Shown piece after piece: positions 1-38,939 of a stretch of DNA of 64,000 nucleotides; position 1 is the stretch's first letter, and each line of letters opens with the position of its first letter. Under the pieces are notes generated by a model, which searched no databases, had not been told where the DNA came from, and was given only the letters and a program-made list of their open reading frames with translations. The stretch is taken from positions 64,001 through 128,000 of the IMG/VR virus record IMGVR_UViG_3300032291_003679, one strand, 5' to 3'. Origin of the DNA: a virus. Position numbers and translations under genes: made by a program.

Positions 1-3000
1 CGGGCAGTCTGTCTTGCGCTAAAGCCCGAAGACCGATGTCATCGCCTCTAATGACGAATCCTTTTGGAGCTACCATTTCCAACATTGGGAATCTAGCTCT
101 TGCTTCGTCGTTCTCGTACTCTAAAACGGAACCGGAAGTTTCGTTCTTGTATATTTGTCTAGCAACAATATTCCCGTCAGTATCTTTCCATACTGAATCT
201 TGAAAAACAAGCGTATCTTTCATTGCTTCATCAAGTATTGAAATAACGTCATCACGCTTAGGCAACTCGACGGTACGCCAGTCTCGTTTGTCCGGTATCT
301 GTTCTGCCATTTGAGGTATCGGGTCAGCAGAAACAAACGGAATTCCGTCTGAAGAAATGTCAATCGAAATTGATTCAAGCAGTTGTTTTCCGGTTTCAGA
401 AAACGCATCGTCTATTTCAACGTCAAGAAGCGTTTTGCCCGCAATTTCTCTGGTTAAACCTGGAACCTCTCTCTCAATAATTCTTTTTTGTTGGTCGGTT
501 AGTGTTGTTTCGGTTGTTTCTTCTATTTTTTGTATTATTCGTTCAGCAACTTTTTTGCCGGTCAATACTTCCCTGTTGGAACCAGACTCGGCAGCTTCTT
601 GCTGAGTTACTTCTATGGGTTCATTAAATGCTTCAACTACATTTGCGCCAGAAGAGAGTCTTGTACTTTCCCCTTCGTCGTCCAGATATATCTTATCGTC
701 CGAGAATCTTTCATCATTTTTAAGGTCACCAATAGCGCGGTTAATGGCGTCAAGAAGAGACATTCCTTCTTCTTGATACTTGTCCCTTAAGCGCCCGAGC
801 TCTTCTGATTCAAGCTTTTTTAAATCAGCATTAAATGTGCGAAGTTTGTACCGTGAACCATTTTCATCATATACAAGTTTAAATCTTTTATTTTTTTTCT
901 CATTGAAAATTTCAATGTCTTTTATTAATTTTTGCAACGTGTTGCGCGTTGCGGTATACCCGTCTCTTCCTCGTGGCAGATATATAAGTAGGTTATAAAG
1001 TGAGTTATATGCAAGTTCGTCGTCATACACGTCGATGCTTACGTTGGCAGTCAGCTCACCATTTTTATAAATCGGGCTATAAGCATAGCCATGTTTTTCA
1101 ATAGATTCTTGTTTTATTTTTTCTCTGTAATTTTCGTCTTCTTCAAACAGGTTTTGAAGCCTGTTCCATTCTTTGACCATTTCTTCAAAGGTGTCGAACC
1201 GCTTCCCGAAAACGTCTTCGCTGGCTTGCTCAAAAGCTTCCTGGTTGAATCCGTTTTCATCACGGCTCCCAAGGCGTCTGCCGCCATACCCACTATATCC
1301 ATCATGGTATTCATAACGAGCGCGATATTCGCCCATTAGTCCTATGGGCCGTTCTTCTTGATTAAGAATATAATTACGGGCATTGCTTCTTATCTTGTAA
1401 CTAGTTTTTTCATTATCTGAGATGCGGCCAGAAGAGAGATAGTCTTTTATTTCTTGAGGTGTTCTTATTCTGTATTTTTGTCTTCCTCTTTTTTTTGATT
1501 CAAATCTTTCAAAAATTTCAGGAAATTCACCTATGAAGAAGTAGGCATTAGAAAGCGGTATCTCTAGTTCTTGAGACATTATTTTGATGTCTACTTCTCT
1601 GTCTGCATTGTCCTCTGTCCATTGCAGTGTTCTTTCAAATTCGTCTTCGCCGTAGGAAAATGATGCTCTTTTTAGTTTTTTCTTTTTTCGCGCTAAATCA
1701 ACCATTTCGAGTATTGCGTCATACTCTGCTTCTCCAATTCCTCGCGCTCGCGGCATTCGTGTTCCGCGGCGGTTATTTCTCGGAATGGGCCCATATGCTT
1801 CGTCGTAAAGACTGTCGTCGCTCGCAACTCTCCCTGCCATGGCCTCCGGTGAAGGTTTTTTTAGCGGTTCTTTTGTTGGCCTGATTGGTCTAAGACGTCT
1901 TTTGAAAATGTCACCTTGCTCTGTCTCTGTTTCCGCCGATGTTTCGGCATACTCTTGAGGTGTCAAAAAATCAGCTTTATCTTTTTCAAACTTTTCTACA
2001 TCTGTGTTAAATTTATCGTTGTCGGCTTTTAGTTTTGCGTCTCTTTTTTCTTTATCCAAGACGTCAGTAGACCATCTGTTTTCAATGGCTCTATCAATTA
2101 TCTTCTGCATAACCTGACTGGTTGCAAAAGCGTCAGCATCGGCGTTGTGGTGACCCTCACCTAATTCAACATCCAAATACTTAGTTATTGCAGCAAGACT
2201 GCTGGATGGTTTCTTGTTTCCATCTCTATCGGTTGTGTAGGGGCCCTCTGGGCTCTCTTCGCTCCACACGGGCAACGTCATTGCACTTATGTCTCTTGTG
2301 TCAAGATAACCAGAAGGACGCCAATCAATCCCGCTTTCACTCAATGCGTCTTCTAGAACGTTCTTGTCAAACGTGGCATTCTGGACGCCAATGATTGCAT
2401 TTGGCCCAATAAACTCAGCAACTTGCCTATGGGCTTCTGCCATTGGCATCTGCGTAGCGAGCCATTCGTTCGTTATTGGATTGCCGTCTGCGTCCTTAAG
2501 GTTTTTCAAGGACCATTCGCCGAGAGATTCTTCGGGGTTCATGTATAAATTTAAACGACCAATTTCTTTGCCGTTCTTTATTCTTGCTAGACCTATTTGT
2601 ATTGGCTTACCATTGCTTGACGCTTTGCCAAATTCGTCAAAAGTCAGACCAGTTGTTTCGTAGTCAAGGAAGACCATTTCGGTTTCGTTGTATCGCTCTT
2701 TAAATTCTTCCCACGAACTGACGCCATCAAACCTCTTCTCTGCGTCACCAAGGAAAGCACCAAGCGTTGGTTCGCGTGGATATCGTGGGGCCTTACCACT
2801 GCTCAGTGTTTGCCGTGAATCAGTTGCAGAATCCGCATTGTTGTAAAGTTCACGAACCTTCTCGCTAGACATAGCCAGATATGCGTTTTCAGTAAGAATT
2901 AGCTTTTCTGGGTCTATGTCCCTGAAACCCATGCTTTCCCAGTACTCCTTGGAGCCAGGGGTTGATTCAAGGCTTATGCCAGTATTGTCGTCATTTGCTA

Positions 3001-4984
3001 TTTTTAAAATGTCACGGAAAACAGAGCTTCCCAGGTTGTCTATCCCGGATTCTTTTCCATAGCTTGCCATATGGTGGATGAATAGATTGTCGTTATCCCC
3101 TCTTCCGCCTCTTCTAAAACGTGCAGCACCAACAATATTATTGTTTGAATCTCTAGCTACTACTAACGACCTGTCAACTGGGTTTGGTTCGCCAAAAAAA
3201 TCAGAATCACCAAATACTTTGTCCATCTGTATTTTTGCTTCAGCAAATCTTTGAGGAACTTTTCCATCTGGATACTTTTCTTTAGATAGCTTTTTGTATG
3301 AATCATCTGCTTCTTTTTGAAGATTGTAAAAAGATTCTCTGATTTTTTCTACATTGTCGTATATTGCGTCACTGTAAGCATCGACATCAAAATCGCCGTC
3401 ACTATTAAGGAATTCAGGGTCGTCTTCGTCGATTATTGTTTGCTCAACAATGCTGGTAGACACGTTTTCGTCGCGGGTGTTTTTGCCACTAGATAGGCTT
3501 CTTGAACTGTCGCGAGAAGGTAATGCTCCAGCAAGTTCTCTTAATGGTCTTGTATAGAAAAATTGAGCACCAGCATCATGAAACACTTTATCCGCAGTAG
3601 CAAAGTCAACCAATTCTTCTGCTGTTGCTTCTGTTTCAAACAGTCCAGTATCTTCATCTTTGCTATATAAGGAAGATATTTTTTTTCTATCTTCGTCGGA
3701 GAAAAGTTCTGGTGTTTTGGAAATGGTGTCATCAATTAGTTTTATAAACCCTTGTTTATCTTTTTCACCAGCCCATGAGAAGCCGTTTTTCGGCCAGTGA
3801 ACAGCGCCAGTTGAACCGCCACCAGATGCGCCCCATGTAATTATTGAGCGTACGTCAAGCTCTTTGTATATTTGCTCGTTTCGAGCATTGAATGTAGACC
3901 CTATGCCTTGTCCTTGGGCGCGGTTCGTGACGTAGAACGAATCGTGTGACACCATCCGAACGTCTTTGTCGTCCCCCGATATCTGCATAAATGTTCTGTA
4001 CGATGTTGCAAGAGCAGGTGTTCCATCGTCTCTGGAAACGAATCTTCTCTTGTCCTCGTCGTCGAACATGGCGATAAGCCTGTCGTTGTACTCTGGAAGT
4101 GGTTTAATTCTAAAACCAATCTCCAGCTTGGAAAGCAAGTCGCTTTCTTCTAGATTTCTTTCGTACAGTTGTAATTCGTCTTGTTCTGCAAGGTCTTTTT
4201 CAGAAACTTTATCTATTTTTAGAGACGTGGCCCATTCTGGTTGTGGGACTACTTCTATCAAGACCCTTTTACCAATATTTAGCTGCTTCCCATCATCGCC
4301 CGTAATAATTACGTCTTTGTCTAGCGTCATTTCGCCTTCAAATATTTTGGCGAATAAATCACGAACTCGTTGTTTTTCTAGTTTTCTTTCTTCATCGTCT
4401 TGAATTAACTGAACCGGCTTTGGTTCAGGCATCCCTGGTGGTCTCGGCGGTTTTGGTCTGGTGTCGAGCTCGTATACGTCTGCTTTTTGAAATTCTTCTG
4501 CTGAGAGCTCTTCAAAAAAATCATTTATCGATTGTTTTTTGTCTTCGCTTAATGGCGGTTGCGCATCAACTATCTCTTGATATTTTTTCCCAGAAGAAAG
4601 CGCTGAGCTTCGGTCACCCTGTTCGTCGCCGCTTGGTGAAAAAACACTTCCTTCAGAACGACGAGCAGGGCTCGCAGGTTTTCCGCCCTGGCCTTCAATT
4701 CCTACCCAGACCGGCTTTGTAGTGCCTTCGTCGGCCCAACCGTCACCGTCGACATCTCTACGGCTTCCTGTTGGGTTTCTGGTGCCGGGCTTGCCGCCTG
4801 TTGGCAGGTCAAAGCCCCTTCCGCCTCGTCCTCTGCGTCTTTCGCCAATGGTGGGCCTGTTTACTGCCCTGGAACCCAAATAGCGGCCTAGTCGTCCTAG
4901 GGCAGCCTTTTGTTCCGGGCTTGAATTTGCACCGCGACGGGATTCCTCAAAGGGAATGGAGAACTCTTGATTATCTGCAGACAT
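1..4984 (-). CDS. Giant polyvalent/polyprotein, truncated by the window edge (>1660 aa): leader, GNAT, GNAT, DEDDh 3'-5' exonuclease and unknown modules, separated by LSSG
   Basis: Not in the ORF track. I translated it by hand from ATG at 4984 (MSADNQEFSIPF...) to base 2 with no in-frame stop. GNAT motifs: SFYVTNRAQGQGIG...HWPKNGF (~3780-3950) and IVGAARF...LGSSVFRDILKIA...YWESMGF (~2925-3170). DEDDh motifs: VFLDYETTGL, QNATFD, HNADADA (~2130-2680). Confidence 0.9.
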   Translation of the reverse strand, partial: MSADNQEFSIPFEESRRGANSSPEQKAALGRLGRYLGSRAVNRPTIGERRRGRGGRGFDLPTGGKPGTRNPTGSRRDVDGDGWADEGTTKPVWVGIEGQGGKPASPARRSEGSVFSPSGDEQGDRSSALSSGKKYQEIVDAQPPLSEDKKQSINDFFEELSAEEFQKADVYELDTRPKPPRPPGMPEPKPVQLIQDDEERKLEKQRVRDLFAKIFEGEMTLDKDVIITGDDGKQLNIGKRVLIEVVPQPEWATSLKIDKVSEKDLAEQDELQLYERNLEESDLLSKLEIGFRIKPLPEYNDRLIAMFDDEDKRRFVSRDDGTPALATSYRTFMQISGDDKDVRMVSHDSFYVTNRAQGQGIGSTFNARNEQIYKELDVRSIITWGASGGGSTGAVHWPKNGFSWAGEKDKQGFIKLIDDTISKTPELFSDEDRKKISSLYSKDEDTGLFETEATAEELVDFATADKVFHDAGAQFFYTRPLRELAGALPSRDSSRSLSSGKNTRDENVSTSIVEQTIIDEDDPEFLNSDGDFDVDAYSDAIYDNVEKIRESFYNLQKEADDSYKKLSKEKYPDGKVPQRFAEAKIQMDKVFGDSDFFGEPNPVDRSLVVARDSNNNIVGAARFRRGGRGDNDNLFIHHMASYGKESGIDNLGSSVFRDILKIANDDNTGISLESTPGSKEYWESMGFRDIDPEKLILTENAYLAMSSEKVRELYNNADSATDSRQTLSSGKAPRYPREPTLGAFLGDAEKRFDGVSSWEEFKERYNETEMVFLDYETTGLTFDEFGKASSNGKPIQIGLARIKNGKEIGRLNLYMNPEESLGEWSLKNLKDADGNPITNEWLATQMPMAEAHRQVAEFIGPNAIIGVQNATFDKNVLEDALSESGIDWRPSGYLDTRDISAMTLPVWSEESPEGPYTTDRDGNKKPSSSLAAITKYLDVELGEGHHNADADAFATSQVMQKIIDRAIENRWSTDVLDKEKRDAKLKADNDKFNTDVEKFEKDKADFLTPQEYAETSAETETEQGDIFKRRLRPIRPTKEPLKKPSPEAMAGRVASDDSLYDEAYGPIPRNNRRGTRMPRARGIGEAEYDAILEMVDLARKKKKLKRASFSYGEDEFERTLQWTEDNADREVDIKIMSQELEIPLSNAYFFIGEFPEIFERFESKKRGRQKYRIRTPQEIKDYLSSGRISDNEKTSYKIRSNARNYILNQEERPIGLMGEYRARYEYHDGYSGYGGRRLGSRDENGFNQEAFEQASEDVFGKRFDTFEEMVKEWNRLQNLFEEDENYREKIKQESIEKHGYAYSPIYKNGELTANVSIDVYDDELAYNSLYNLLIYLPRGRDGYTATRNTLQKLIKDIEIFNEKKNKRFKLVYDENGSRYKLRTFNADLKKLESEELGRLRDKYQEEGMSLLDAINRAIGDLKNDERFSDDKIYLDDEGESTRLSSGANVVEAFNEPIEVTQQEAAESGSNREVLTGKKVAERIIQKIEETTETTLTDQQKRIIEREVPGLTREIAGKTLLDVEIDDAFSETGKQLLESISIDISSDGIPFVSADPIPQMAEQIPDKRDWRTVELPKRDDVISILDEAMKDTLVFQDSVWKDTDGNIVARQIYKNETSGSVLEYENDEARARFPMLEMVAPKGFVIRGDDIGLRALAQDRLP

Positions 4985-13668: not shown

Positions 13669-14066
13669 TTCTTAAACTCGTCCCATGTTTTATCTCCGGC
13701 ACCGAAATAGGCTCTTGCATATCCTGAAGAAACTATATCTTCATTGAGGCAAGCAGTCTGCTCAGACTTTACGTCTTTGTCTGAATATATCTGGGCAAGT
13801 ATTCTTCCGTATTTGTCGTCCTTGCCGGCGATGGTCTTCAAGAACACTGTTTGATGTCTTGTTGTCCAGTCGGCTGTAAAGGTTTTTGCCTTCAGGCCCA
13901 TTTCTTTTTCTGCCAAGTCTTTTGTTCGTGATTCTGGAGTATTAACTCCGTAGAGTCGTACTCGTGCTTTATGGTGGATGTTGAACCCAAGGTCAATCAT
14001 GACGTCCAATGTGTCTCCATCGATGACTTTTAAGACTTTAGCCGTATACCAGTATTGCTCAGCCAT
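13665..14066 (-). CDS. Thermonuclease (SNase-like) family nuclease
   Basis: VIDGDT, RVRLYGVNTPE, DKYGRILA, LNE..V..GYA. Confidence 0.9.
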   Translation of the reverse strand: MAEQYWYTAKVLKVIDGDTLDVMIDLGFNIHHKARVRLYGVNTPESRTKDLAEKEMGLKAKTFTADWTTRHQTVFLKTIAGKDDKYGRILAQIYSDKDVKSEQTACLNEDIVSSGYARAYFGAGDKTWDEFKK

Positions 14067-14874
14067 TTGACTTCTTCTTGCGTCGCTTTGACATTACTTT
14101 CGCCGCGTGTGCCATACGTCTACGTGCTTCAGAATCTTCTGGCATATACGAGGTCATTGCTTTCTCCGAAGCCCCCATGTGCACTAAATTTCCCCTAACA
14201 GCAAGACGAACGATTCTTTCGTCTTCAAAATTAATCTCATCTACGTCGTCAACTATTCCGCTCCACAAGCCCGCCATGTCCGGGTCGTTGCGGTGGGATA
14301 AGAAATTTTGATTCGCTGTCTTATTGAATACATCAAACTCAAAGTCGGACTTCTTTTTCTTTTTTGAGTTTTCGTATCTCTCTAGAAGTCTTCTACCTTT
14401 AGCAGCAAGTCTTCTTGCGTCTTCCATGTCTTGAGGAACCGGCTCTCCCCATGCTGCAGCAGACAAGGCTAGACGTGTTGAACGGCCTTTTTCATCTTTC
14501 ATCGGTCCAGATGGATTAGTGAAGAATCTAGTGAGAAACGAACCTTTTCTTCTCATCTTCTGTGGAGTATTGGCTGCACCCATAACTCCGGGCTTAAGGT
14601 TCGCGCCTTCTTTTCTCTTGAAGTATGCGCGACCTGCTGCCGTGAGTCCACCCTTAGGGTCTCTTAAGACTGGCTTCTTTGCCCCTTTTTTCATAACGTC
14701 GTTAAGTCGTTCTGACGTGTAGTACTCATCGAAAAGCGGCTGCATCTCAATTCGCTTGAGTTCTACAAGTGATTGCTCGGTAATTTGCCCTAGGGCCAAT
14801 TCTGCCTCTATTTGGTCAGATATTCCCTGAAGCTCTTCATAGAGCTTTTCTGTGTCATCAATAGGATTTGTCAT
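14059..14874 (-). CDS. Head-associated hypothetical protein with a DUF6321-like basic domain
   Basis: DPKGGLTAAGRAYF...NLKPGV...RRKGSFLTRF...GPMKDEKG..TRLALS...W. Confidence 0.6.
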   Translation of the reverse strand: MTNPIDDTEKLYEELQGISDQIEAELALGQITEQSLVELKRIEMQPLFDEYYTSERLNDVMKKGAKKPVLRDPKGGLTAAGRAYFKRKEGANLKPGVMGAANTPQKMRRKGSFLTRFFTNPSGPMKDEKGRSTRLALSAAAWGEPVPQDMEDARRLAAKGRRLLERYENSKKKKKSDFEFDVFNKTANQNFLSHRNDPDMAGLWSGIVDDVDEINFEDERIVRLAVRGNLVHMGASEKAMTSYMPEDSEARRRMAHAAKVMSKRRKKKSNG

Positions 14875-14977: not shown

Positions 14978-16342
14978 TCAGGAAGGTGCGCTGTCGAAGT
15001 CCAGCTTCACGAATGCCTCTGGGCGCTTCACGGCGAGAGCAAGGCGCTGCTCGGCGAGAATCACGATGGCATTACGGATGAAGAAGTCCGAGTGCTGTTC
15101 GCTGATACGGATGCTTGCCTGCTCGCGGTCGTACAACTGAGCGCCGGTACCGAAAGCACCAACAAGAGCTGTACCCTCTGTCATGGCAGGAGTGTCAACG
15201 ATTGGCATTCTCCAAACACGTGGCTCGCCACCCATTGCAACCGAAACTGCGATGAGGTATTGACCCTGCTCGTCCTTGGTGAGCTCGATGTCTTCCCAGT
15301 CATTCGGGTGTAGAACTACACCTGATGGCTCGTAGTAAGCAAGGAATGACAACGTTGCTGCACGACGGATTGCGTCAGCCTTGGTGTCTGCGACAGGTGC
15401 TGAAACACCGTCTGACCATGCGTACTCCTGAATGTTCGGTGTCTGAAGAACGCCGAGCAAGTTTTCGCCAACGCCATTTCCGTTAAGGATTTGGTTATCT
15501 TCGAGAAGACGAAGACCGTACATGAGTTCGTTGTCGATGATTGCACGCAACTGTGGCTCATCTGACAAAACGTTGCGGTGAGCTGCTTCCCAGTGAGCGA
15601 GTGTGCGCACTGGAGCCTGCTCGCCAACGAAGGCAAATGAAGACTGTGGCTTGATACCGAATGCTGTGTTGCCGGAGTTACGCTCTGCAACTGACGATGC
15701 ACTGTTTGTGCCATGGCCAGCCTGCAGGGTTGTGAAACCGAGCTGACGGAAGTATTCAATAACTGCAGCGTTTGTTGTGCGTGTTGGGAACAGGTCACGA
15801 ACGCGCTTTGTACGCATTGGAGGTGTCACCATTGGGTCACGCTGAACGTTGCCAAATGAACCAAGACGGCTGTCTGTAACAGCGGTTGTTGGCAATGCTG
15901 AGTACACATCCTTGACATTGAAGCCATTGTGTGAAGTCAACGAAGCAGCAACCTGCCAAGGAGCAGCCATGTTTGCGCCATTGCGGCCACCGTTGAGTGC
16001 CTTGAACTCTGCTGACTCAAGGAACATCTGACCAATGCTCTTGATTTCACGTGATGTAAGTTGGTTCATGTCTGCAGATGCAGCTGCGTATGCGGCAGCA
16101 GCAGATTCGCCTGCAGGCTGTGAACCCCAGCCATCAACTTGGTTCATGGTCTCAAGGTCGCCGAGAAGGCCCTTGATTTCCTTGATGTCGCGCATGTTCT
16201 TATCGAATGCGCTCTTTTGCTCTGGAGTAACGACTACTGTGCCGTTCTCAACTTTGAATGAATCAGCGATGGTCTTATTGTCTGCCATCTTCTGACGTAG
16301 AGCTCCTTGGAGCTCATCTATACGGGCTTTGTCTTCCGACAT
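14978..16342 (-). CDS. Major capsid protein, HK97 fold
   Basis: Coiled-coil delta-like N-terminus; VRDLFP; VRTLAHW...SDEPQLRAIIDNELMYGL...EDNQILNGNG; F.RN...ILAEQRLALAVKRPEAF; SD GAGGAG. Confidence 0.95.
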   Translation of the reverse strand: MSEDKARIDELQGALRQKMADNKTIADSFKVENGTVVVTPEQKSAFDKNMRDIKEIKGLLGDLETMNQVDGWGSQPAGESAAAAYAAASADMNQLTSREIKSIGQMFLESAEFKALNGGRNGANMAAPWQVAASLTSHNGFNVKDVYSALPTTAVTDSRLGSFGNVQRDPMVTPPMRTKRVRDLFPTRTTNAAVIEYFRQLGFTTLQAGHGTNSASSVAERNSGNTAFGIKPQSSFAFVGEQAPVRTLAHWEAAHRNVLSDEPQLRAIIDNELMYGLRLLEDNQILNGNGVGENLLGVLQTPNIQEYAWSDGVSAPVADTKADAIRRAATLSFLAYYEPSGVVLHPNDWEDIELTKDEQGQYLIAVSVAMGGEPRVWRMPIVDTPAMTEGTALVGAFGTGAQLYDREQASIRISEQHSDFFIRNAIVILAEQRLALAVKRPEAFVKLDFDSAPS

Positions 16343-28189: not shown

Positions 28190-29761
28190 TTAGTTGTCGT
28201 CTAGGGTGTCTTCGAGCAACTGGAACTCGACAAGAGAAGCCATGAACTCAGCGTCACTCAAGTCGCCAACTTTTTCTTCTCCGCCAGCAATCCAATTGCC
28301 AGGAATCATGCTTTCGAGCTTAAGTGCACGAGCACGCTTCATGATGTGCTTCTTTGTTGCCTCTTTGTCTTTTGCTCGTCCATATGCCTGGATAGCATTG
28401 CGCAAGTCGGTTTCAGAGACAATTGGGTATGAGCCATCTGCCATTGCTTCGCCGCTCTTCGCCAAGTCAAAGCGACGCTCTTCAGAGAAAGCGCGCTTGA
28501 GGGCAATTTCTGCAGCTTCTGCTTCGATTTCTTCAACTTCGTCAGCCTCGTACTTGTCGTAACCCAGAACCTCTCCGTCTAGGGCGACAAAAACGTCGTA
28601 CGACTTGCCATCAAATCCTTCGATTTCCACAGCGTATGCATCAAAGCCTTCAAATACGTCTGGCTCTACGGCGATTACTGTTCCGTCGATTGATTTAACT
28701 GCAATTTCAGCAGCTTCCGTGAAGTCAATAAGGTGGAAGTCACCAATATCTGACTTTTGTTCAAAGCTAGAAGAGTCAAGCTTGTGGAAGCCAAGTATCT
28801 CTGCTGATTGACCGTCAATGAAAACTTCATTGACCGAGCCATCTTTAACCTGAACGTCAACAACAAACATGTCTGCGTCTGAAGAATATCCAGAATCTAC
28901 GACAACACCGTCGAACATCTTTTCAGCAAGGCCTTCTACGTGAAGAATTCCTGGCATTCCTTTTTCTGCAACACATCCGCCAGGACAGTCGTCGCACACC
29001 GGAGAAGAGCCGCCATAGGCTTTGCGCTCAATTGCGCAAACATAACCGGTTGCGCCAATGTCGGAAGTCTTCAAACCCATGGATTTGATTCTCGAACGAC
29101 GAATTTGTTCCCATTCAGAGTCGCGAGCCGAGAAAGACTTTGTACCCATTTCTGCGTACTCTTCCTCGTCTTCTTCGTCCTCTTCTTCTTCGGCAACATC
29201 TTCTTCTTCTTCTTCGTCTTCCATCATTTCTTCGTCTTCAAGTTCAGCTTTCATGCCTCGCATTCTGCGCATGCGCTGTGCTCTGCCGCCGCTTGAGCCC
29301 ATCATCTTTTCTTCGTCAGATTCCATGTCCTCTTCGTCTTCAGGCATTTCATCTTCGTCGATTTCGTCTTCTTCGACCATTTCTTCGGCGTCGTCTTCGC
29401 TCATCATGACAGGAGCACCCTTTTTCTTGGGCATGACAGCAGCAAGTTCCTCTTCGGTCATTTCTGGCTCTTCCTCCTCATCAATCATGTCCATGAGTGC
29501 GTGTCCAGGCTTTTTGCCGTCCATCTTTTTCTTCACGGCGACAGCTGCTGTTGGGTTAAGCGCGTCTTCTGCCTCGATAGTTTCTTCGTCCTCTTCAGAG
29601 GATGCTGGAACCATCTTCATCTCGACAGGCATAGCACCACACTTGGCGCATAGCTCTGCTCCCTTGACGAAACCGCAATCTCCAGCGGCTGCGCCTTTGG
29701 CGCACTTCAAGACATTGCCGTCACCGTCAATGCTTACAGTAGCTTTTTCGTCGTACTTCAT
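28190..29761 (-). CDS. Acidic scaffold-like protein with Cys motifs, two PepSY-like domains and a C-terminal DUF6582-like domain
   Basis: Long E/D-rich tract; EAAEIAVKSIDGTVIAVE...YAVEI...GKSYDVFVALDGEVLG (PepSY-like); GEAMADGSYPI....DLRNAIQAYGRAKD...HIMKRARAL. Confidence 0.65.
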   Translation of the reverse strand: MKYDEKATVSIDGDGNVLKCAKGAAAGDCGFVKGAELCAKCGAMPVEMKMVPASSEEDEETIEAEDALNPTAAVAVKKKMDGKKPGHALMDMIDEEEEPEMTEEELAAVMPKKKGAPVMMSEDDAEEMVEEDEIDEDEMPEDEEDMESDEEKMMGSSGGRAQRMRRMRGMKAELEDEEMMEDEEEEEDVAEEEEDEEDEEEYAEMGTKSFSARDSEWEQIRRSRIKSMGLKTSDIGATGYVCAIERKAYGGSSPVCDDCPGGCVAEKGMPGILHVEGLAEKMFDGVVVDSGYSSDADMFVVDVQVKDGSVNEVFIDGQSAEILGFHKLDSSSFEQKSDIGDFHLIDFTEAAEIAVKSIDGTVIAVEPDVFEGFDAYAVEIEGFDGKSYDVFVALDGEVLGYDKYEADEVEEIEAEAAEIALKRAFSEERRFDLAKSGEAMADGSYPIVSETDLRNAIQAYGRAKDKEATKKHIMKRARALKLESMIPGNWIAGGEEKVGDLSDAEFMASLVEFQLLEDTLDDN

Positions 29762-29876: not shown

Positions 29877-32800
29877 TTATTTATCTGGATTCTTTGAATT
29901 TTTCTTGTCCACCCAAAGGCTATTGCCGGATTCGACTCTCTCTCTTGCTGTTCTTAACTGCTCGTCGCTAAATATGTCATCAATTGTGTATCTTGTTCCA
30001 AACATCTCATTAAATCTGTTAACCATTGACTGCAGTTCACTACCCGAGAATCGTGGCTCGTTACCCTTACTTGGGGTCCACACCGAACCCCTGTTCTGCG
30101 TGGCCGCTTCTAGGGTGTACGCCAGGTCGGTAGCTTCGATTATTTTGTTGCGATTTTCTCTGGTATTAAGTTTTGGAAAACTCTTGTCGATAAATTCGTA
30201 AAGAGCCTCGTAGACGGCGTATTTTGGCCTCTTCATCTCCGTGTCGAACCTCTCGCCAGTATCAGATTCTTTCCATACCGATTTTGCGTCTGGAAGAACT
30301 CCATTGCGAATCATTTGAGCAATTGTTGCAGTAGGAATTCCTTTTCTTCTCCACGCATCATTGATTCCGATGGAATCCGTTCCAAAGGCTGATGAAAGTC
30401 GCTCCTGTAGACCCTTCTTCCATTCTTTTCTATCAATTCCAAGATAATCAAGAAGCGAATCAAGGTCGAAGTCTTCTATCGCGGTCTTGTCATCTCTGAT
30501 TATTTCCCCAGAATCATCTATAGAGCCTTCTTCTGGCAGAAGCATGTCAAAAGATTCACCATAAAGGTCTATCTCTGCCTCAGAATCTCCTCTTGTTGCA
30601 CTGTCTGGATAAAAACGGCCCGAGGCTCTAAATTTAGATGTTTCACTTACTTCTCCAAGTTGAACATATTCCTCAGGGGTCATTGATTGATTTTCTTCAA
30701 CATCAAACCAATATGGGAACGCATCTTTGCCAAACGTTTCAATAATGAATCTGTCACGCATATTTGCGCGGCCAGCATTTTCAGATGCCAAATCAATTTG
30801 CGAAATGTCTTCTATGATGTCGCCCTCTGGGGACTGCACTACTTTTTTGGCTTCATTTGCAGAAACTGGAGCAAAGTATCTCCACGCTGAAAGCTCTTTC
30901 TGCTTACCGAGTTCAGCAATCAAGAGGCGCACAGCGTCGTGGTTGATTCCAGCATCTGGTTCTCTCATCTTTGCTGCGTTAGCAGGGCTCAACCCAAGCA
31001 TCTTAGAGATTTCATCCCTTGTTGCTGGTCGTGACTGTGTCCACCTGATTGTCGAACCGTCTTCGGTATTAAAATTTTCTCTTGAAGTAAATTCTGTTGG
31101 GATTCTTATCGTGTCAGCAAGCTTGTCAATAGAGAGCATCCACGTTTCGGCCGACGGATTCTCGTTTTTGTTGTTGTCACTAATTTTGCCAATACGCACA
31201 CGTTCTTGACGTGCTTTCATCGCTTTGCCAACGTTCTGCATTGCGCCGCGAGTGCGTGATTGACGCACCGGCACTGAAAGCGAGTCGTCATCTATGTCAA
31301 TCGCTATGCCGCGCTTACGTACGCCGTCCCATGCCTGCATGGCGAACTGAAGTGCTTGTCTGTTTTTGCTGGAGTTTGGGTCTCCGTTTATTCTCAATCC
31401 GGCGAGCTGTTGTGCGCTTAGGCTACCTCCGTAGATATTGCTTCCAGAAATTTTTCTGCTTCTACGTGTCAGGCGTCTGCTTCCATCGGTGGTTGCTCCA
31501 CTAGACAGTGTCATTCCTAGAACGTCGTCGATGTCACCTTCGTCAACTACTTCATCATCGTCGTCACCTTCTGGAAGTACGAAATCGTCTTCTCCAGGTT
31601 TTCCATCTTCACCGAATTCGTAATCTTCTTCATCAATTTCAGTAATGATGCCTTCAACTTCTTCAGAATCACCATCATCATCAACTGGTACAGGAACCAC
31701 AATAACTTCGTCGTCTTTTTCATCAGTAGGACGAGCTGGGAATCCATTTTCCAGTTCTGAAAGCGACATGGCATTAATTGCCTTGTACCAATCTGGAAGA
31801 GGAATCCCGTCCTTATCACCGAAGGCTCCTCTATCAAGCTCTGGTGGGATATGCCCATCTACAACAGCTTGCTTCATTGCATCACGTATTGCTTTTGTTC
31901 GCTCGTCATGCAAGTAATAAAAGAAACCAGCATTGCCTGGGTCTAACATTTCTTTTGCGCGGGAGAATGCAACATGGACTAGGTTTCCCTCTTCCATGAA
32001 GCCAATACCAGCTTCGCCTTGCGCCAAGTTGCTTGGAAGATTCTGGGACGGGTCTCCCATGTCTTCTGCTACTGCGACGAATCGAGACTCACGACCCTTA
32101 GAGAGCTGCATTGTTGTGATTTCAACATCTCCGCCCCCAGTCTTGGCCGCATCGCGCACTGCTTGAGCAATTTGTGCAAGTATCTCAGTGCTTTCTTCTA
32201 GGGTTTCACCTTTAATAACAAAACCGTCATAATGGCGACGCCCAGCCTGTCCTTCAATTCTAAAGCCACGCTCAGCTTCCTGCATTACTTCAATTTTGTC
32301 CTGAAGTCCAAGCTGAATGATTGCTTTTTCAAGGTCCCTGCGGTATCTGCCGTTGTTTGAGCCGCGACCTCCTGGTGGAGTATTTACCTTTTGACTTCCG
32401 TCTGGCCTGTCTATTGGTCGACCGGTGTCCACGCCGTCGCCGGTTATTATTATTCGACCAGTTGCTTTTCCTGGGGATTTGTCACTACCCCCTTCAATTT
32501 CAAGAGCAGCATAAACAGCTTGCTTAAACGTGTCGTCAACGTTGGGAATAATGAAAAGCTTTTCTCTCTGTGTTGATTTAGCTTTCCATGCGGACTTTTG
32601 TCTTCCGGCTATTTCTCTTATTTGGTCAACACCAACATTCCAGTTATCGAGTTCCATCGTCTTGCGTTCTGGAATTAAAACTGCTGGGATTATGTCAATT
32701 TTTTCCTTGCCCTTGGCTTTGCCTTTTTCGTGAACCCCTTTAACGACGGTTCCCTGAAGGAGTTCTAGCATTCCCTTTGTGCCAAGAGCTTTGCCTGTTG

Positions 32801-35800
32801 GGTCATTCTTGGGTGGCTTCATTATCAAGTTATAAGCAGAACGTGCTTGCTGATATCTTGCTTGACTAAGAGCCTTTTGTAGCGCGCCAGTTGTCCAGAC
32901 GTTGCCTAGCCACCCAGATGCCTGTGGTTTACCGAATCGTGCAACATAATCTCGCTGCTGTTGTGGTGTTCGGTTAATAAAATCAAGATGCTTCGTAAAG
33001 GTAACTAGCTGCTCCCACTTGGATGCTGGAATAATTACTTCCGGCAACTTTGGCATGCCGCGTTCGTCTTTCTTAACAGCCCTGCTGTTAATGACGATAT
33101 TAATAAACTTAAGAGCTTCGTTGATTATTTCGGCATTTGTTCTACACAAAATCATCGTCGGCAGATTTCCCTTGTCGGCCTCTTCGTATCTGTCGACTAT
33201 TCTTCCTTCCTTTGGCGCGTAAAGTTTATCTCTTAATTCCTTAAGGGCTTTATCTTGCTCTCTTCTGCTTAGGGATGAAATATTTAGCTTCTCCGTGGGG
33301 GAAGAATATTTTTTCTCAATTTTAGCAATCAGGAGCTCTCGGGTTGCATCATCAAGTTCTTCAACAGGGAAATTTCCGCGTCTGTCTTCTTTTGGTAACA
33401 ATGGGTCAAACTGTCTATTAATGACCGTTTGTGCCTGACCCTTAACATGCTTCCATGCAACTGGTTGTGGAACCCCTTGCTTCGTTAGATGCAGGTTCTG
33501 TCCACCCAAAACAAGGTTTGTCGCATGACCGATAACTCCGCCGTATCTAAATGACTCAGTAATGCTCTGCGCATACTCCGGCTGTAGTGACTCAAGAATA
33601 TTTTTTGAATCACGGAATGCGTAAACTGCTTGCCTGTCGTCGCCAACAATTATAATTGGAAGTTTATCCCTATTTCTATCAAGGACAGTTTCCAGAACTT
33701 CGTTAGTATCTTGCGATTCGTCAACCATAAAGGCACCGAGAGGATTCTCTGGTGTCGCTACTTTTTTGCGTAAAGTTGCTCTGGACGTTTTCCCGGCCTT
33801 GTCCGAAATCGTCGTAACAATCCACTCTTCTCCATCGGCAACATACGTATCGCCTTCACTAAGAGATGACGGAATGGCGACTTTTGCTCTTGTCTGATTG
33901 CTTGAATGGGTAATTAAGCCTGGGTCTGTTCTTAGGTCTGGGTCCGTCAGCATCCAAAGTTTTGCTATTAGTTCCATTGATGGCATAACGTTAGAGTCAC
34001 CATCTGAAATTTGGTCAACTATCGACTGGACCGAATCAATCCATAGCTTTGGAATTGCGCTTTCCGGCAAAATGCTATCTACTCCGCCGGGCTTTTTCCC
34101 ATGGCCGCGCGGCGTATCTAAGTCTTCTATGGCCTTTTTGGGCTGCATAAAATGTTGGGCAGTAACTTTTTCTTCTTTCGAAAGCCCCCATCTTCTGAGG
34201 GCGTTGGCAAGAAGGTCACCCATTTCAGAAAACTCTACGAACTCACCGTTTGGAAGTTCGAATCCATCAACTTCTACTTCAACTTTTGTTTTTTTGCCTT
34301 TTTCATTAAGGACTGGCTTGCCTGTCGTGTCTACGACAGTTACCATCTTTTTTTTCTTTTTTTGGTTTGGCCACTTGTTTATTTCAAGATGTTTTACAAA
34401 ATCTTCACCCGACTCAAGCACTACCCATCCCAATGCCTCTAGGCCTGGGTCTTCGCCTACAAATGTTTCTATTGTTCCATCAAAAGTTTCCCTGACAAAG
34501 TTTTTACCAATCATCTTTTCGACGTCTGGTGTTTCTTCTTCGCTTTTCCACTTCGGATTACGTCGCATGGACTTTTTGCTATCGCGGGATTTGTTTAGCA
34601 TTACCAGCTTCCGGCGCATACCTTTTCCATACCTGGCGTCACCTTGGCCAAGGCGTAGCGACCACTGCCACAATTTGTCCGTTGTTGCAATACCAGTGTT
34701 TTTGGGGAATTCAACTTCAGCTTCTAATTGGTTTTTAGTGTTAAACACCGTGTAGAAAATGTTGCCAGTTTTATTAGCTTTTGCTAAGTCTGCTACCGTT
34801 TCTTCAATCTTGTCTGCTGGTATTTTGCTGAAATCAACACCGTAAGTATCTGACAGATACGCTAATTGTTCAGCCCTGCGGACATCGCCTTCTGGCCAGA
34901 GTTCAAACTCTCTCTGAAGGGCCCACGCAATGCTCTTTAGTGTTGTTGTTTTGCCCGTTCCTGCACCAGCAAGAACGCTGAAAACTGCTGGATTTCTTTT
35001 ATGTATAAGCGACATTGCTACAGCTATGATGTCACGCTGTTCGTTAGTTGGTTCGTCCTTAAGGGCGAACGCAAGCCCAAGAGAGACTTTCTCGTCTATC
35101 CGTTCAATGTCTGCGACACCTTTTTGTTTGCCCTTTGGTGTTCCACTAATCGGGCCATCTTGTTTGCCGCTAGCTAACGCACCAGACGGAGTTATAACAA
35201 CGCCGTCCTTGTTTTTGGCTGGGAGCCCTTCGAGTGACCGAGCGAGTTCTCTTTCGGAAGGGCTTGATGGAACAAAATCGTCAAAAGCTTCGGAGTCAAG
35301 AAGGTCTTCTAGCGGTCCTACTATTGTCGTTGTCGGTTTGATTGGTTCAATGTCTTCGTATCCTGCAAGCATTGGCACTTCATACCATGAGTCCTCTTTG
35401 CCCTTGCGCTCATCGTCAGGGATGCCGGCAAGACGACGCATTGTTGCCGAACGGTTAAGCAAGTAGTCGTTTGCTTGCTGAGCCTGAACGATTGCTCTAT
35501 GAATTGCGAGAGGGTCTGAACGTAGCTTCTTTAGCCAGCTATTTAGGTACAAAAGATGGTCTTCGCGTACTGTTGGCTCCAGACCCATTGACCCCATTGC
35601 GAATGCTGAACCTATTTCTGCAATCAATTCTTCGAATGCGTACTGGTCATCGCCGAATTCACGGCCCAGAGTTCTGTTTAGTCTTGTTGGGTGAGATGTC
35701 CAGTGAATTGTCTCATGCATTGCCGTCCCATAGAATGCGAGGGCATTCTCAAACTGTTCAAATGCTGGCATGTGAATCTTGTCAGTGGATGGACGATAAA

Positions 35801-38800
35801 AGGCTTGCTGGCCTTTTGATTCGACAAATGCTGGACCTATTTCTTGGATTACGTTTTCAATATCCTGCAACCGCTGCTCTTGGTTGATGTCAGTATCTTC
35901 AACTTCGTAATACTTGTTAGGAAGATTAGAAACATCATCAACGTTGTATACGGTTTGAACAACGTAATAGCGACCCATCTGGATTGCTTGTCCATCAGCG
36001 TTTATTACAGTTCTGCCATCACGTGGCACAAGAATAGAAACGCCGCGAGCACTAGCTCCAGGCTTTAATTTTCCGCCTAGTTTTTCCCATTGCGTTCTGC
36101 CTGCCCATCTGTTTGTTTTGTAGCCGCGACTTTGCGCAGTAAGCAAAAGGGCTAGCTGATTCATGCCCTGGTAAACACGATTTTTAGTTGGGTTACGCGC
36201 AAAGATTTCCGGGTTGCGCCACGGCATCTTCCATTGTTTTGTTTTGTCAGGGTTATCAATTAAGTCTTGCAGGACTTCGATAATCTCCTCGGCCATTCTC
36301 TTGTACATTTCCGCAAGGATTGGAGAGTCTTCTGGTATTTCTGCTTTATCTGGAAGTTTTCCGGATGAAAGTGCAGCACTAATTGGGCCGTCAAATTTTC
36401 TTATCTCGTTGTTGGTTCTCTTGTTTTTTGACTTATTTAGATATTTTGCGTAACCGCTAGAAAGCTTTTGCTCAGGGTCGTCTGGTATTGCTACGAACTC
36501 TGGCTTTCGGCCGCGGGCAAGTTCGAGGTTCTCTCTATCCTGGTCTTGCTGCATGATGGACGTGACAAGGTCCCTATCAGGAGGGATGCGAACGAACCCT
36601 GGCTTTCGGCCGCGGGCAAGCGGAGTGCTTCTGTCGATGACTTCTGGCTTCTCGTCTGGTATCTCTACAAATTCTGGCTTTCGGCCTTGGGAAAGACGCG
36701 TATTTCTATCGAGAACCTGTGGTTGCTTCGGCTTTTTCTTAGGCTTATCTGCCTCCGCTATTTCGTCTTCAGCCATCTTCTCGACACGATTCATATACTT
36801 GTCAAGGTCAGCAATAGCCTTCTTTAGCTTCTTTATCTGGTCAGCGTCAGTAGCGCCGTCCAGCACTCCCTGTAGTTCGTCTCTTTGAGATTCTGCGGCA
36901 CCGTATTTTTCGGCTGAATCAACATCTGGGTCGTCTATTCGCGGAAGGTCTAGCGGGATTTTCCCTGAAGATAGACGCTCGGTCCGAGCAATAGTTTCTG
37001 ATTCTGGCTTAGAAAGCTGACGGGGTGACGGCTTTGGGTTACGAATTGAGCCAGGACCATCTGGAGTTGGGTCCGGAGTAGCAAGTGGGACGCCACGAAG
37101 GAATAGACCTTCACCGACGACTCCGTTGAGGTTTGCGTCACGAGCTGTGAATGGGTCAAAGTCTTCTGCCCCGATTGAGGTAAAGAACCTTCCACGTGAA
37201 CGACCGCCTCCAATGTTAGGACGGTCGATTAGGCGACTGCCGATAGCGCGTCCGAGGCGGTAACCAGCCGCCTTCCACTCTATGTCATTCTCACCTAGAG
37301 ATTTTTTTTTTAGATTATCAACAGCCGTATCGATGGCTTCAATCAGCTCAAAGCTGACACCAGAGGTGATGACGATGCCGTTGACATCCACAAAGGAGTC
37401 GACATTGTGATAGTCAAAGATTGGGTCTAGAGCTTGTTTTACTTGAAAGGCAAACTGAGGCACCACTGGAAGCAAGTATGGCTTCTGGTCGAAATTGTCA
37501 TCTTTTGTTGAGCCAAACTCGCTGAGAAGCTTAAACTTACGACGCTTCTTGCGGCGTCTCCCAACAACTCCACGGAGTGCTGCAACTGCAAGTTCTCCTG
37601 GATACTTTACTTCCAGGTCAGCAATGTAGTCCTCTTCGTTGAATTCTTCGTCAAGTTCATAAGTCTTCTTAGATGCTGTGTCGCCGGTGACTACTCCCTT
37701 GGGAATTACGGCAAATCTGCACTTGCCTTCTGGCTCGACATCCATGGCGATTATCTTGCAAGAATTTCCACCTTGGTAGAAGACGCAGTTTGCGCACTTA
37801 ACGCCAATTGCAGCAACTGGGTTTTCAGCTGCAGGCTTATAGCCAGCCCAAACGCCGTCAGAATCCTCGTTGAAACGACCGTGGCGCTTAACAATCTTAA
37901 GAAGAGCATCTCTTAAGTCTGTTTCTTCTTGGTCGAGATTGTTTTTGTCAAACTCTGGCTGATTTCTTTCATCATCCATGTCTTCGTATTGGACGGGGGG
38001 CAGAGGAACCATACGGTTGCCGTTTTCTCCAGGCTTAATAGCAATTGGCATCGCCGGCATTTGTGATGGGCGAATCACTCTTTGTGGCTCATTTGCAGGG
38101 ACACCAGGTGCCAGCATTGGCATATTCTGCATTGGCGCAACTGGCTTGCGTGCTGGCATCACCACAATCTGCTGTGGTGGACCAAACATGTAGCGTCCGC
38201 GGTTCCCACTAAATCCGCACTTGTAGCGACCGACTTCACCATTGTCCATTCTGCGGGCAAATGTAATTTCGTCGTCGTTTACGTCCATCAGTGAAACTTT
38301 TGCACCAAGGATTGTAGCTAGTTGCTTTTCTATTTCAGCCTTGTCGATGGCGTCTTCGTCGTCTTCCATCATCGCCATCATGACGCCACTGGCGTTGTCG
38401 TCAGACTTAACTGAAATTGTTCCAGTAAGTTGATTTGCTCCATGTAAAACGGGCGAGACCTCGTAAAGTTCAAGTTCGTAAATAACGTTTGCTTGAGACT
38501 TTTGGTCAAACTGGGCCCGAAGGGTCTTGTATCCGATTGACCATTCCTGCTCTTCTCCAAAGAAAGCAACCATGGCAAAAGCTTCCCGACCTTTTTCTGA
38601 ATTAAGGTTGAATTGCACACGGGCGAACAGGCCACCAATGCCAGCCATTTTCATCTTAAGTGGCAAGCGATTGTCCGTATTTGGAACTTCGTAAATCTCT
38701 AGAACTTTACCGATTGGGTCATTCCAGCTATGTCCCCAGACAACTCGTGGCTTACGGCGTTGGAGGCTCTTGGCGAATGCTCCACTTGCAACAATGTCAC

Positions 38801-38939
38801 CAACGGAGTCTTTGTTACCAATACCAGCAACGAAACACTCAACTATGCCCTGAGCCTCATCAAGGTTGATGTTTCCGCCCTTCGAAGAGAGCGAGTTACC
38901 AAGCGAAGTTGACTTGTATTCGAATAGTTCAGATGGCAT
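29877..38939 (-). CDS. 3020-aa fusion: HK97-type prohead protease, scaffold/HiPIP-like region, leader, ArdC-like (ssDNA-binding + metallopeptidase), UvrD/SF1 helicase, unknown C-terminal module
   Basis: Protease GNKDSVGD...VVWGH..NDPIGK...EWSIGY...LYEVSPVLHGAN; ArdC WKMPW...YQGMNQ...HETIHWTSH..RLNR...YAFEELIAEIGS; helicase AGAGTGKTT, DESQD, VGDDRQAVYAFR, SFRYG, LCRTN, SKGRE, VAFSRAK. Confidence 0.9.
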   Translation of the reverse strand: MPSELFEYKSTSLGNSLSSKGGNINLDEAQGIVECFVAGIGNKDSVGDIVASGAFAKSLQRRKPRVVWGHSWNDPIGKVLEIYEVPNTDNRLPLKMKMAGIGGLFARVQFNLNSEKGREAFAMVAFFGEEQEWSIGYKTLRAQFDQKSQANVIYELELYEVSPVLHGANQLTGTISVKSDDNASGVMMAMMEDDEDAIDKAEIEKQLATILGAKVSLMDVNDDEITFARRMDNGEVGRYKCGFSGNRGRYMFGPPQQIVVMPARKPVAPMQNMPMLAPGVPANEPQRVIRPSQMPAMPIAIKPGENGNRMVPLPPVQYEDMDDERNQPEFDKNNLDQEETDLRDALLKIVKRHGRFNEDSDGVWAGYKPAAENPVAAIGVKCANCVFYQGGNSCKIIAMDVEPEGKCRFAVIPKGVVTGDTASKKTYELDEEFNEEDYIADLEVKYPGELAVAALRGVVGRRRKKRRKFKLLSEFGSTKDDNFDQKPYLLPVVPQFAFQVKQALDPIFDYHNVDSFVDVNGIVITSGVSFELIEAIDTAVDNLKKKSLGENDIEWKAAGYRLGRAIGSRLIDRPNIGGGRSRGRFFTSIGAEDFDPFTARDANLNGVVGEGLFLRGVPLATPDPTPDGPGSIRNPKPSPRQLSKPESETIARTERLSSGKIPLDLPRIDDPDVDSAEKYGAAESQRDELQGVLDGATDADQIKKLKKAIADLDKYMNRVEKMAEDEIAEADKPKKKPKQPQVLDRNTRLSQGRKPEFVEIPDEKPEVIDRSTPLARGRKPGFVRIPPDRDLVTSIMQQDQDRENLELARGRKPEFVAIPDDPEQKLSSGYAKYLNKSKNKRTNNEIRKFDGPISAALSSGKLPDKAEIPEDSPILAEMYKRMAEEIIEVLQDLIDNPDKTKQWKMPWRNPEIFARNPTKNRVYQGMNQLALLLTAQSRGYKTNRWAGRTQWEKLGGKLKPGASARGVSILVPRDGRTVINADGQAIQMGRYYVVQTVYNVDDVSNLPNKYYEVEDTDINQEQRLQDIENVIQEIGPAFVESKGQQAFYRPSTDKIHMPAFEQFENALAFYGTAMHETIHWTSHPTRLNRTLGREFGDDQYAFEELIAEIGSAFAMGSMGLEPTVREDHLLYLNSWLKKLRSDPLAIHRAIVQAQQANDYLLNRSATMRRLAGIPDDERKGKEDSWYEVPMLAGYEDIEPIKPTTTIVGPLEDLLDSEAFDDFVPSSPSERELARSLEGLPAKNKDGVVITPSGALASGKQDGPISGTPKGKQKGVADIERIDEKVSLGLAFALKDEPTNEQRDIIAVAMSLIHKRNPAVFSVLAGAGTGKTTTLKSIAWALQREFELWPEGDVRRAEQLAYLSDTYGVDFSKIPADKIEETVADLAKANKTGNIFYTVFNTKNQLEAEVEFPKNTGIATTDKLWQWSLRLGQGDARYGKGMRRKLVMLNKSRDSKKSMRRNPKWKSEEETPDVEKMIGKNFVRETFDGTIETFVGEDPGLEALGWVVLESGEDFVKHLEINKWPNQKKKKKMVTVVDTTGKPVLNEKGKKTKVEVEVDGFELPNGEFVEFSEMGDLLANALRRWGLSKEEKVTAQHFMQPKKAIEDLDTPRGHGKKPGGVDSILPESAIPKLWIDSVQSIVDQISDGDSNVMPSMELIAKLWMLTDPDLRTDPGLITHSSNQTRAKVAIPSSLSEGDTYVADGEEWIVTTISDKAGKTSRATLRKKVATPENPLGAFMVDESQDTNEVLETVLDRNRDKLPIIIVGDDRQAVYAFRDSKNILESLQPEYAQSITESFRYGGVIGHATNLVLGGQNLHLTKQGVPQPVAWKHVKGQAQTVINRQFDPLLPKEDRRGNFPVEELDDATRELLIAKIEKKYSSPTEKLNISSLSRREQDKALKELRDKLYAPKEGRIVDRYEEADKGNLPTMILCRTNAEIINEALKFINIVINSRAVKKDERGMPKLPEVIIPASKWEQLVTFTKHLDFINRTPQQQRDYVARFGKPQASGWLGNVWTTGALQKALSQARYQQARSAYNLIMKPPKNDPTGKALGTKGMLELLQGTVVKGVHEKGKAKGKEKIDIIPAVLIPERKTMELDNWNVGVDQIREIAGRQKSAWKAKSTQREKLFIIPNVDDTFKQAVYAALEIEGGSDKSPGKATGRIIITGDGVDTGRPIDRPDGSQKVNTPPGGRGSNNGRYRRDLEKAIIQLGLQDKIEVMQEAERGFRIEGQAGRRHYDGFVIKGETLEESTEILAQIAQAVRDAAKTGGGDVEITTMQLSKGRESRFVAVAEDMGDPSQNLPSNLAQGEAGIGFMEEGNLVHVAFSRAKEMLDPGNAGFFYYLHDERTKAIRDAMKQAVVDGHIPPELDRGAFGDKDGIPLPDWYKAINAMSLSELENGFPARPTDEKDDEVIVVPVPVDDDGDSEEVEGIITEIDEEDYEFGEDGKPGEDDFVLPEGDDDDEVVDEGDIDDVLGMTLSSGATTDGSRRLTRRSRKISGSNIYGGSLSAQQLAGLRINGDPNSSKNRQALQFAMQAWDGVRKRGIAIDIDDDSLSVPVRQSRTRGAMQNVGKAMKARQERVRIGKISDNNKNENPSAETWMLSIDKLADTIRIPTEFTSRENFNTEDGSTIRWTQSRPATRDEISKMLGLSPANAAKMREPDAGINHDAVRLLIAELGKQKELSAWRYFAPVSANEAKKVVQSPEGDIIEDISQIDLASENAGRANMRDRFIIETFGKDAFPYWFDVEENQSMTPEEYVQLGEVSETSKFRASGRFYPDSATRGDSEAEIDLYGESFDMLLPEEGSIDDSGEIIRDDKTAIEDFDLDSLLDYLGIDRKEWKKGLQERLSSAFGTDSIGINDAWRRKGIPTATIAQMIRNGVLPDAKSVWKESDTGERFDTEMKRPKYAVYEALYEFIDKSFPKLNTRENRNKIIEATDLAYTLEAATQNRGSVWTPSKGNEPRFSGSELQSMVNRFNEMFGTRYTIDDIFSDEQLRTARERVESGNSLWVDKKNSKNPDK
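36480..36720 (-). repeat. Three tandem peptide repeats L(SQ/AR)GRKP(E/G)FVxIP inside the 3020-aa protein
   Basis: The 21-nt string TGGCTTTCGGCCGCGGGCAAG occurs at both 36501-36521 and 36600-36620, with a third degenerate copy near 36675-36695. Confidence 0.85.
37302..37311 (-). promoter_or_regulatory. A10 slippery run (candidate programmed frameshift or transcriptional slippage site)
   Basis: CTA AAA AAA AAA TCT CTA GGT GAG; both alternative frames stop within 4 codons. Confidence 0.5.

Follow-up and report, generated by a model that had tools for sequence, protein, structure and literature searches.

Several phages are known to carry proteins inside their heads, and signals that mark such cargo have been described. 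In T4, head proteins that are packaged and injected bear an N-terminal propeptide, the capsid-targeting sequence (CTS), which lies just before a protease site and is common to otherwise unrelated cargo (PMC7411985, PMC5694885). The ejection proteins of SPN3US and phiKZ have propeptides of 111-130 residues that the prohead protease removes and that have been proposed to direct these proteins into the prohead (PMC7411985, PMC5694885), while the 250 kDa anti-restriction protein DarB, which rides in the head of P1, has an N-terminal signal that is sufficient to load a reporter (PMC9024508). Encapsulin targeting peptides, which are short, rich in Gly and small residues and found at either end of otherwise unrelated cargo, dock that cargo on the interior surface of an HK97-fold shell (PMC8346489). 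For very large polyvalent proteins, entry into phage heads is known mainly for fusions to MuF or portal domains, the head-association device named in the passages of Iyer et al. 2017 on this subject (PMC5512222). Here we describe a leader peptide of ~70 residues in an uncultured lake phage. The window that we analysed is a stretch of 64,000 nucleotides, bases 64001-128000 of a 158,021-bp record (IMG/VR record IMGVR_UViG_3300032291_003679) that is complete and has direct terminal repeats. One copy of the leader (copy A) stands near the N terminus of a giant protein of 3479 amino acids (aa), and another (copy B) stands inside a 3020-aa giant that begins with a prohead protease. By analogy with the systems above, we propose that the leader may be a procapsid address label, that is, a cargo-loading propeptide removed at the first Leu-Ser-Ser-Gly (LSSG) site, a proposal that we consider about equally likely to be right or wrong.

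On sequence evidence, the likeness of the two leader copies is homology. A BLASTP search with the first 161 aa of the 3479-aa protein as query aligned its residues 24-59 with residues 554-595 of the 3020-aa protein (22/42 identities, E 2e-5). When both giants were compared over their full length, the leader stretch was the sole match (E 3e-4), and full-length comparison of the other pairs among the four giant proteins of this genome gave none. A profile built only from the N-terminal copies of other phages recovered the internal copy among all open reading frames (ORFs) of at least 80 aa in the genome (E 9e-10), and a profile built only from internal copies recovered the N terminus of the 3479-aa protein (E 8e-16); neither had a further match in that set. 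Chance similarity is ruled out by these cross-validated profiles together with the conservation in relatives described below. An initial annotation of this DNA had noticed two leader stretches in genes that it took to be otherwise unrelated; the stretches are where it had placed them (Table 1), and the full-length comparison bears out the second claim.

The leader is conserved across a family of related phages. Relatives were gathered by their portal protein, giving 270 related contigs, the best 80 of which were kept as loci. In about 70 of these 80 loci the module lies at residues 530-640 of the ORF that follows the portal gene. Fifteen related records were also searched over their whole length, and each of the 10 with a long enough contig has a second copy at residues 21-90 of a further giant; this copy is on the same strand as the first, at a distance of 32-39 kb, and the giant opens with a conserved 20-residue peptide. 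This peptide (MSxDNxEFxIPF..SRRG) is kept in giants of the N-terminal class even across lineages with different leader types (L089-L093, L100, L101, L110 and L111). A reading of the peptide as a twin-arginine translocation (Tat) signal was rejected, as its SRRG has no hydrophobic core behind it. When 1.84 billion representative proteins were searched with a profile, 53 matched, 52 of them giants of the leader-bearing family, of up to 6526 aa, in which the module starts at residue 1-24 or at residue 373-567. Leader-bearing giants of this set hold up to 13 LSSG sites; the first LSSG-type site is usually 5-60 residues downstream of the module, and in 3 proteins only does such a site occur shortly upstream. 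Each genome has two or three carriers of the leader. Across lineages with only 66% identity between their portals, seven columns of the leader alignment are invariant and five nearly so, and the linkers that flank the leader are not conserved to this extent. Searches of Pfam, PHROGs and PDB sequences with a 24-sequence alignment found no such family, the sole match being one weak EF-hand. No leader was found in cultured phages, as a tblastn search of 50,697 phage records matched the protease domain only, mostly in actinophages, and a DNA search for cultured relatives gave no match. Since the cultured phages nearest in the protease domain are actinophages, the host is probably actinobacterial.

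Both edges of the leader are exact. The upstream edge of copy B is a run of ten A's in the coding strand, made up of the last base of a Leu codon and three AAA Lys codons, and 69 of 70 related loci have 9-11 A's at this place despite variable flanking codons. At all 36 distinct junctions, both of the shifted frames reach a stop within six codons (medians 2 and 3), and at the three loci where the run is nine A's long, a new frame opens with the leader. Elsewhere the same tripeptide is encoded differently: where KKK precedes a leader-like stretch in a different gene of the relatives, the codons are AAG AAG AAG or, in one lineage, AAA AAG AAG. The run at the joint of protease and leader looks like a site of programmed slippage that would yield two products, a short form of the protease and a long one that includes the cargo. 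As the run is conserved and the shifted frames stop early, the leader begins where the optional extension of the protease module begins, and the short product from the shifted frames ends exactly at the leader's first residue. The encapsidation tail of the HK97-type prohead protease is at the C-terminal end of its polypeptide. The leader as a C-terminal tail of the protease is ruled out here by its position, as the A run and the stops end the short form ahead of it.

The downstream edge is the first LSSG, 41 residues after copy A and 33 after copy B, which agrees with the order, leader and then first LSSG, that the initial annotation had given. A PDPTPDGPGS stretch directly behind the internal leader is conserved family-wide, and the QPDPTP part of it is also found behind the N-terminal copies of the lineage of relative G007. 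LSSG occurs 22 times in the genome and is confined to four giants. Profile searches of this genome and of its relatives matched only at the start of the cargo in LSSG-rich giants, so the leader does belong to LSSG proteins, as had been suggested, but the association is not exclusive. An LSSG survey and the profile search of the genome's ORFs found no leader on the 2391-aa and 1601-aa LSSG proteins, and a leader-like copy is present in a protein of some relatives that lacks LSSG (see below). The leader is thus separable from the cutting signal, and this uncoupling makes a role in the recognition of LSSG unlikely. A cleavage site between Lys and Ala, which had also been suggested, finds no support; the invariant Lys is inside a predicted helix.

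The two copies have been exchanged between positions. In most genomes the identity between them is 25-44%, and an N-terminal type can be told from an internal type. In relative G001, however, both copies are of the N-terminal type and 80% identical in protein, and in G007 both are of one internal-like type and 68% identical, so that in each case the copies cluster with their genome mate and not with the same-position copies of other genomes. The DNA of these pairs is only 62-64% identical and most of the shared residues have different codons, which rules out recent gene conversion. The combination of alike proteins and diverged DNA indicates that the module was swapped between positions at least twice and was then kept alike by purifying selection on the protein. 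Alike copies at two positions are to be expected of a shared binding partner. A third, degenerate leader-like copy, after KKK, is found mid-protein in a DUF6321 protein that adjoins the capsid gene in G001, G007 and G010 (L094, L102 and L103). This protein is ~520-540 aa long in these relatives, has no LSSG and has long Pro-rich repeats behind the leader-like stretch. The suggestion of the initial annotation that the leader is portable is therefore well founded, in view of the exchange in two lineages and the degenerate copy in a third head-module protein.

The composition of the leader also fits a docking element. In the alignment, a basic cluster (KKK or RR) is followed by an acidic spacer of ~8 residues, ExKA, a helix, an Arg/Gly-rich stretch, a Pro and a loop, over 72 profile positions. 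The helix is amphipathic: Gly recurs at every fourth residue and Arg lines a different face (ExKAxGxRLGRxxGSR...RP), and the helix ends in RP-x-[IL]-G. The Arg/Gly-rich middle is of low complexity and variable length, and a D-x-[DN]-x-[DN]-G loop can be seen in every aligned copy, one of 24 giving the weak Pfam EF-hand match (E 0.05). Copy A has an isoelectric point of 11.3. AlphaFold2 places a helix at residues 23-40 of copy A, whose loop region (residues 61-100) has the highest predicted local distance difference test values of the model (67-82), and at residues 555-571 of copy B, at the same motif position, with the remainder disordered. A lone helix in a disordered basic segment, as predicted by these models, is typical of a docking peptide.

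The cargo behind the leader is of the effector type. Next to the portal, the 3020-aa protein contains ArdcN, MPTase-PolyVal and UvrD domains, giants of the N-terminal class carry RNase_T and GNAT domains, and one 4703-aa representative protein of this class from a relative (P0036) has ADPrib_exo_Tox, GNAT and RNase_T domains behind its leader. In the sense given in the passages of Iyer et al. that define the class, the 3020-aa and 3479-aa giants are polyvalent proteins (PMC5512222). With ArdC-N, MPTase, helicase, RNase_T and GNAT domains, and an ADP-ribosyltransferase in a relative, the cargo looks like a set of ejected effectors.

How does this leader compare with the known signals? The cargo of the relative recalls T4, as ADP-ribosyltransferase is the enzyme class of the packaged T4 Alt according to the relevant passage of PMC5512222. 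However, the CTS has 10-20 residues, as opposed to ~70 here, and no sequence relation between the CTS and the leader was found. As to position, the CTS is N-terminal, and the leader starts at residues 17-24 in the N-terminal class, which includes copy A, and at residues 445-567 in the internal class, which includes copy B, behind a fused protease. If LSSG is the cleavage site, the 128 residues that precede the first LSSG of the 3479-aa protein would be a propeptide of more than 100 residues, like those of SPN3US and phiKZ. Those phages belong to another lineage, their protease is T4 gp21-like with AXE/SXE-like motifs, as opposed to Peptidase_S78 and an LSSG junction motif here, and their shared propeptides are on paralogous proteins, whereas the carriers here are otherwise unrelated. 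The likeness to DarB of P1 is an N-terminal signal on a very large protein, but the P1 signal lies within 30 residues and has no consensus among Dar proteins, in contrast to a well-conserved profile in two or three proteins of each genome. The carriers here, multi-domain giants that are encoded among late genes and contain ArdC-N, MPTase-PolyVal, helicase, GNAT and nuclease modules, resemble the polyvalent proteins presented in the pertinent passages of Iyer et al., which describe neither a leader peptide nor one shared with a protease-fused giant (PMC5512222). The likeness to encapsulin targeting peptides is one of working principle only, as these have 10-15 residues and are mostly C-terminal, which the leader is not, and the Family 1 consensus SDGSLGIGSLKRS (PMC8346489) is out of register with the leader helix and has a different spacing.

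Our proposal would account for these features as follows. Giant polyvalent proteins, each with several enzymes, would be made by the phage for transport in the head and delivery to the host together with the DNA, and the cargo part of each would open with the same module of ~75 residues. The helix and loop of this module may dock on a component of the interior of the assembling head, which could be the capsid protein's acidic N-terminal domain, the 523-aa protein with its strong negative charge or the protease module. Docking would lead to enclosure of the giant. Cleavage at the first LSSG, which lies 5-60 residues farther on, would then release the leader and leave the cargo in the head. We favour an address label because of the place of the leader at the start of the cargo and before the first LSSG, its docking-peptide character, the acidic candidate partners and the interchangeable copies. 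The initial annotation had read the leader as a packaging or ejection signal, an interpretation that is partly supported; packaging, ejection and removal of the leader are events that we infer. Somewhat more tentatively, and as a reading a little less probable than not, the module may be an independent tag that loads cargo into an HK97-fold phage capsid and can be moved between genes, in line with two or three carriers per genome and the exchanges within genomes. It would be a phage counterpart of the encapsulin targeting peptide that is put on polyproteins of more than 300 kDa for injection, and it may also recruit free-standing cargo by way of the short protease/scaffold form made by slippage. 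What the finding provides at present is a conserved leader that can be recognised in sequence and has exact edges, a slippery A run upstream and the first LSSG downstream. If the address-label proposal is true, the leader would offer a tag, ready for use, with which foreign proteins could be loaded into HK97-type capsids, as is done with the tags of T4 and P1. It would also help to find injected effectors among metagenomic phage genomes, and it would link phage cargo loading to the targeting-peptide logic of encapsulins.

Several points weigh against an address label. That the leader binds, that the giant is enclosed and cut, and which partner is involved are all inferred, and so is the link between the leader and any head component. 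Both AlphaFold2 models are of low confidence (predicted template modelling scores of 0.25-0.28) and bear on secondary structure only. As the cargo of the 3020-aa protein is already fused to the protease module, which might reach the head unaided, the internal copy looks redundant unless it is the leader that brings in the protease; alternatively, the leader may bind to the short form of the protease and so allow free-standing cargo to be carried along. Cleavage at LSSG is presumed, and the cutting enzyme and its timing are uncertain, as the motif is not confined to head cargo: the tape-measure-like protein has LSSG as well without ever being inside the head. The 2391-aa protein has LSSG sites and no leader, and the leader is absent from the cultured phages that were searched.

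The same features can be read in other ways. The leader might be retained in the virion as an ejection or portal-engagement signal, which would thread through the portal and tail channel first and guide the unfolded polyprotein into the host, with the LSSG sites being cut after arrival, for example by the giant's own MPTase. A disordered, basic and Gly-rich leader would suit a channel, the 3020-aa giant does have an MPTase, a domain to which the passages of Iyer et al. ascribe a proposed role in processing polyvalent proteins after delivery (PMC5512222), and the tape-measure-like protein with its LSSG sites exits via the tail. However, the leader of the protease-led giant is internal, behind ~545 folded residues, with no free end unless the protein is cut there, and a leader that precedes the first LSSG in nearly all proteins is more in keeping with removal than with retention. 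The degenerate third copy in the middle of the DUF6321 protein also speaks against such a signal, which we consider unlikely. It is also conceivable that the role of the leader is in processing and not in targeting, in that it would bind the S78 protease so as to start or order the cuts or to keep the enzyme inactive until assembly. The internal copy directly follows the protease module, the first LSSG is close behind the leader in both giants, and a stand-alone substrate would need a handle for the enzyme that the other giant carries in cis. The uncoupling of cutting signal and leader, as seen in the two LSSG proteins without a leader and the leader-like copy without LSSG, makes this role improbable, and it would merge with the address label if binding to the protease module carries the second giant into the head.

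Descent alone might also explain two alike stretches. The second giant may have arisen as a copy of the first giant's cargo part, starting at the slippage point, in which case the leader would be a relic or a generic basic linker, a flexible and perhaps nucleic-acid-binding spacer (Arg-Gly-Gly-like) without an address function. The leader starts at a natural module boundary, and its low-complexity middle with variable length is what such a spacer would look like. However, a relic would not be expected to hold seven invariant and five near-invariant columns over the divergence seen among the portals, to stay alike in protein while synonymous sites diverged or to be swapped between positions at least twice while the flanking linkers lack such conservation. 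We regard this explanation as highly improbable and return to the address label as the reading that we prefer.

Table 1. Features of the window discussed in the text, with positions in the window
Feature	Position	Strand	Description
Portal gene	39071..41176	-	Directly upstream of the protease-led 3020-aa giant; query for collecting relatives
3020-aa giant	29877..38939	-	Peptidase_S78 prohead protease at residues 32-175
Module ahead of leader copy B	37305..38939	-	Peptidase_S78 (residues 32-175), then ~370 residues with a Cys cluster and a folded alpha/beta domain at 430-547
Ten-A run	37302..37311	-	Upstream edge of copy B
Leader copy B	37071..37304	-	Residues 546-623 of the 3020-aa protease-led giant
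Linker after copy B	36963..37070	-	Holds PDPTPDGPGS (37047-37076); ends in first LSSG of the 3020-aa protein (36963-36974)
Cargo part of 3020-aa giant	29877..36962	-	ArdC-N, MPTase-PolyVal, UvrD-type helicase, modules without assignment
523-aa protein	28190..29761	-	Net charge -84, two Cys clusters; directly after the protease-led giant
2391-aa protein	21000-28175	-	Five LSSG, the first at residue 1304; no leader
HK97-fold major capsid protein	14978..16342	-	Acidic, helix-rich N-terminal extension of ~100 residues
DUF6321 homologue	14059..14874	-	Adjoins the capsid gene; without leader-like stretch and Pro-rich repeats
N-terminal peptide ahead of copy A	4925..4984	-	20 residues, MSxDNxEFxIPF..SRRG
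Leader copy A	4721..4924	-	Residues 21-88 of the 3479-aa giant; basic Gly-spaced helix, Arg/Gly-rich stretch, DxDxDG-type loop
Linker after copy A	4589..4720	-	Pro/Gly/Ser-rich; ends in first LSSG of the 3479-aa protein (residues 129-132, 4589-4600)
Cargo part of 3479-aa giant in the window	2..4588	-	RNase_T exonuclease domain, weak GNAT matches, further LSSG junctions; ORF continues past the left edge
1601-aa tape-measure-like protein	55802-60607	+	Hydrophobic Gly-zipper segments; LSSG at residues 36 and 607; no leader

The genes around the two giants form a head module on the minus strand, in the order portal, 3020-aa giant, acidic 523-aa protein, 2391-aa protein with several small ORFs, and HK97-type capsid protein. 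The 523-aa protein might conceivably be a scaffold or core protein and, as such, a candidate partner of the basic leader, a position for which the acidic N-terminal extension of the capsid protein is another candidate. Near residue 101 the capsid protein has the sequence K-S-I-G, which we take to resemble the HK97 maturation site. LSSG is absent from this protein, so that maturation of the capsid would use a different site. The 2391-aa protein, with its N-terminal 1300 residues ahead of the LSSG sites, has no match in Pfam or PHROG. Farther downstream on the same strand is the gene for the 3479-aa giant, which starts at position 4984 and exits the window, its length being that in the full record. 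The 37 bases ahead of its start codon contain no obvious ribosome-binding site and separate it from the stop codon of a small ORF directly upstream (about 5024-5345, minus strand), which falls below the 150-aa cut-off for listing and encodes ~105 aa with a C-terminal Cys pair.

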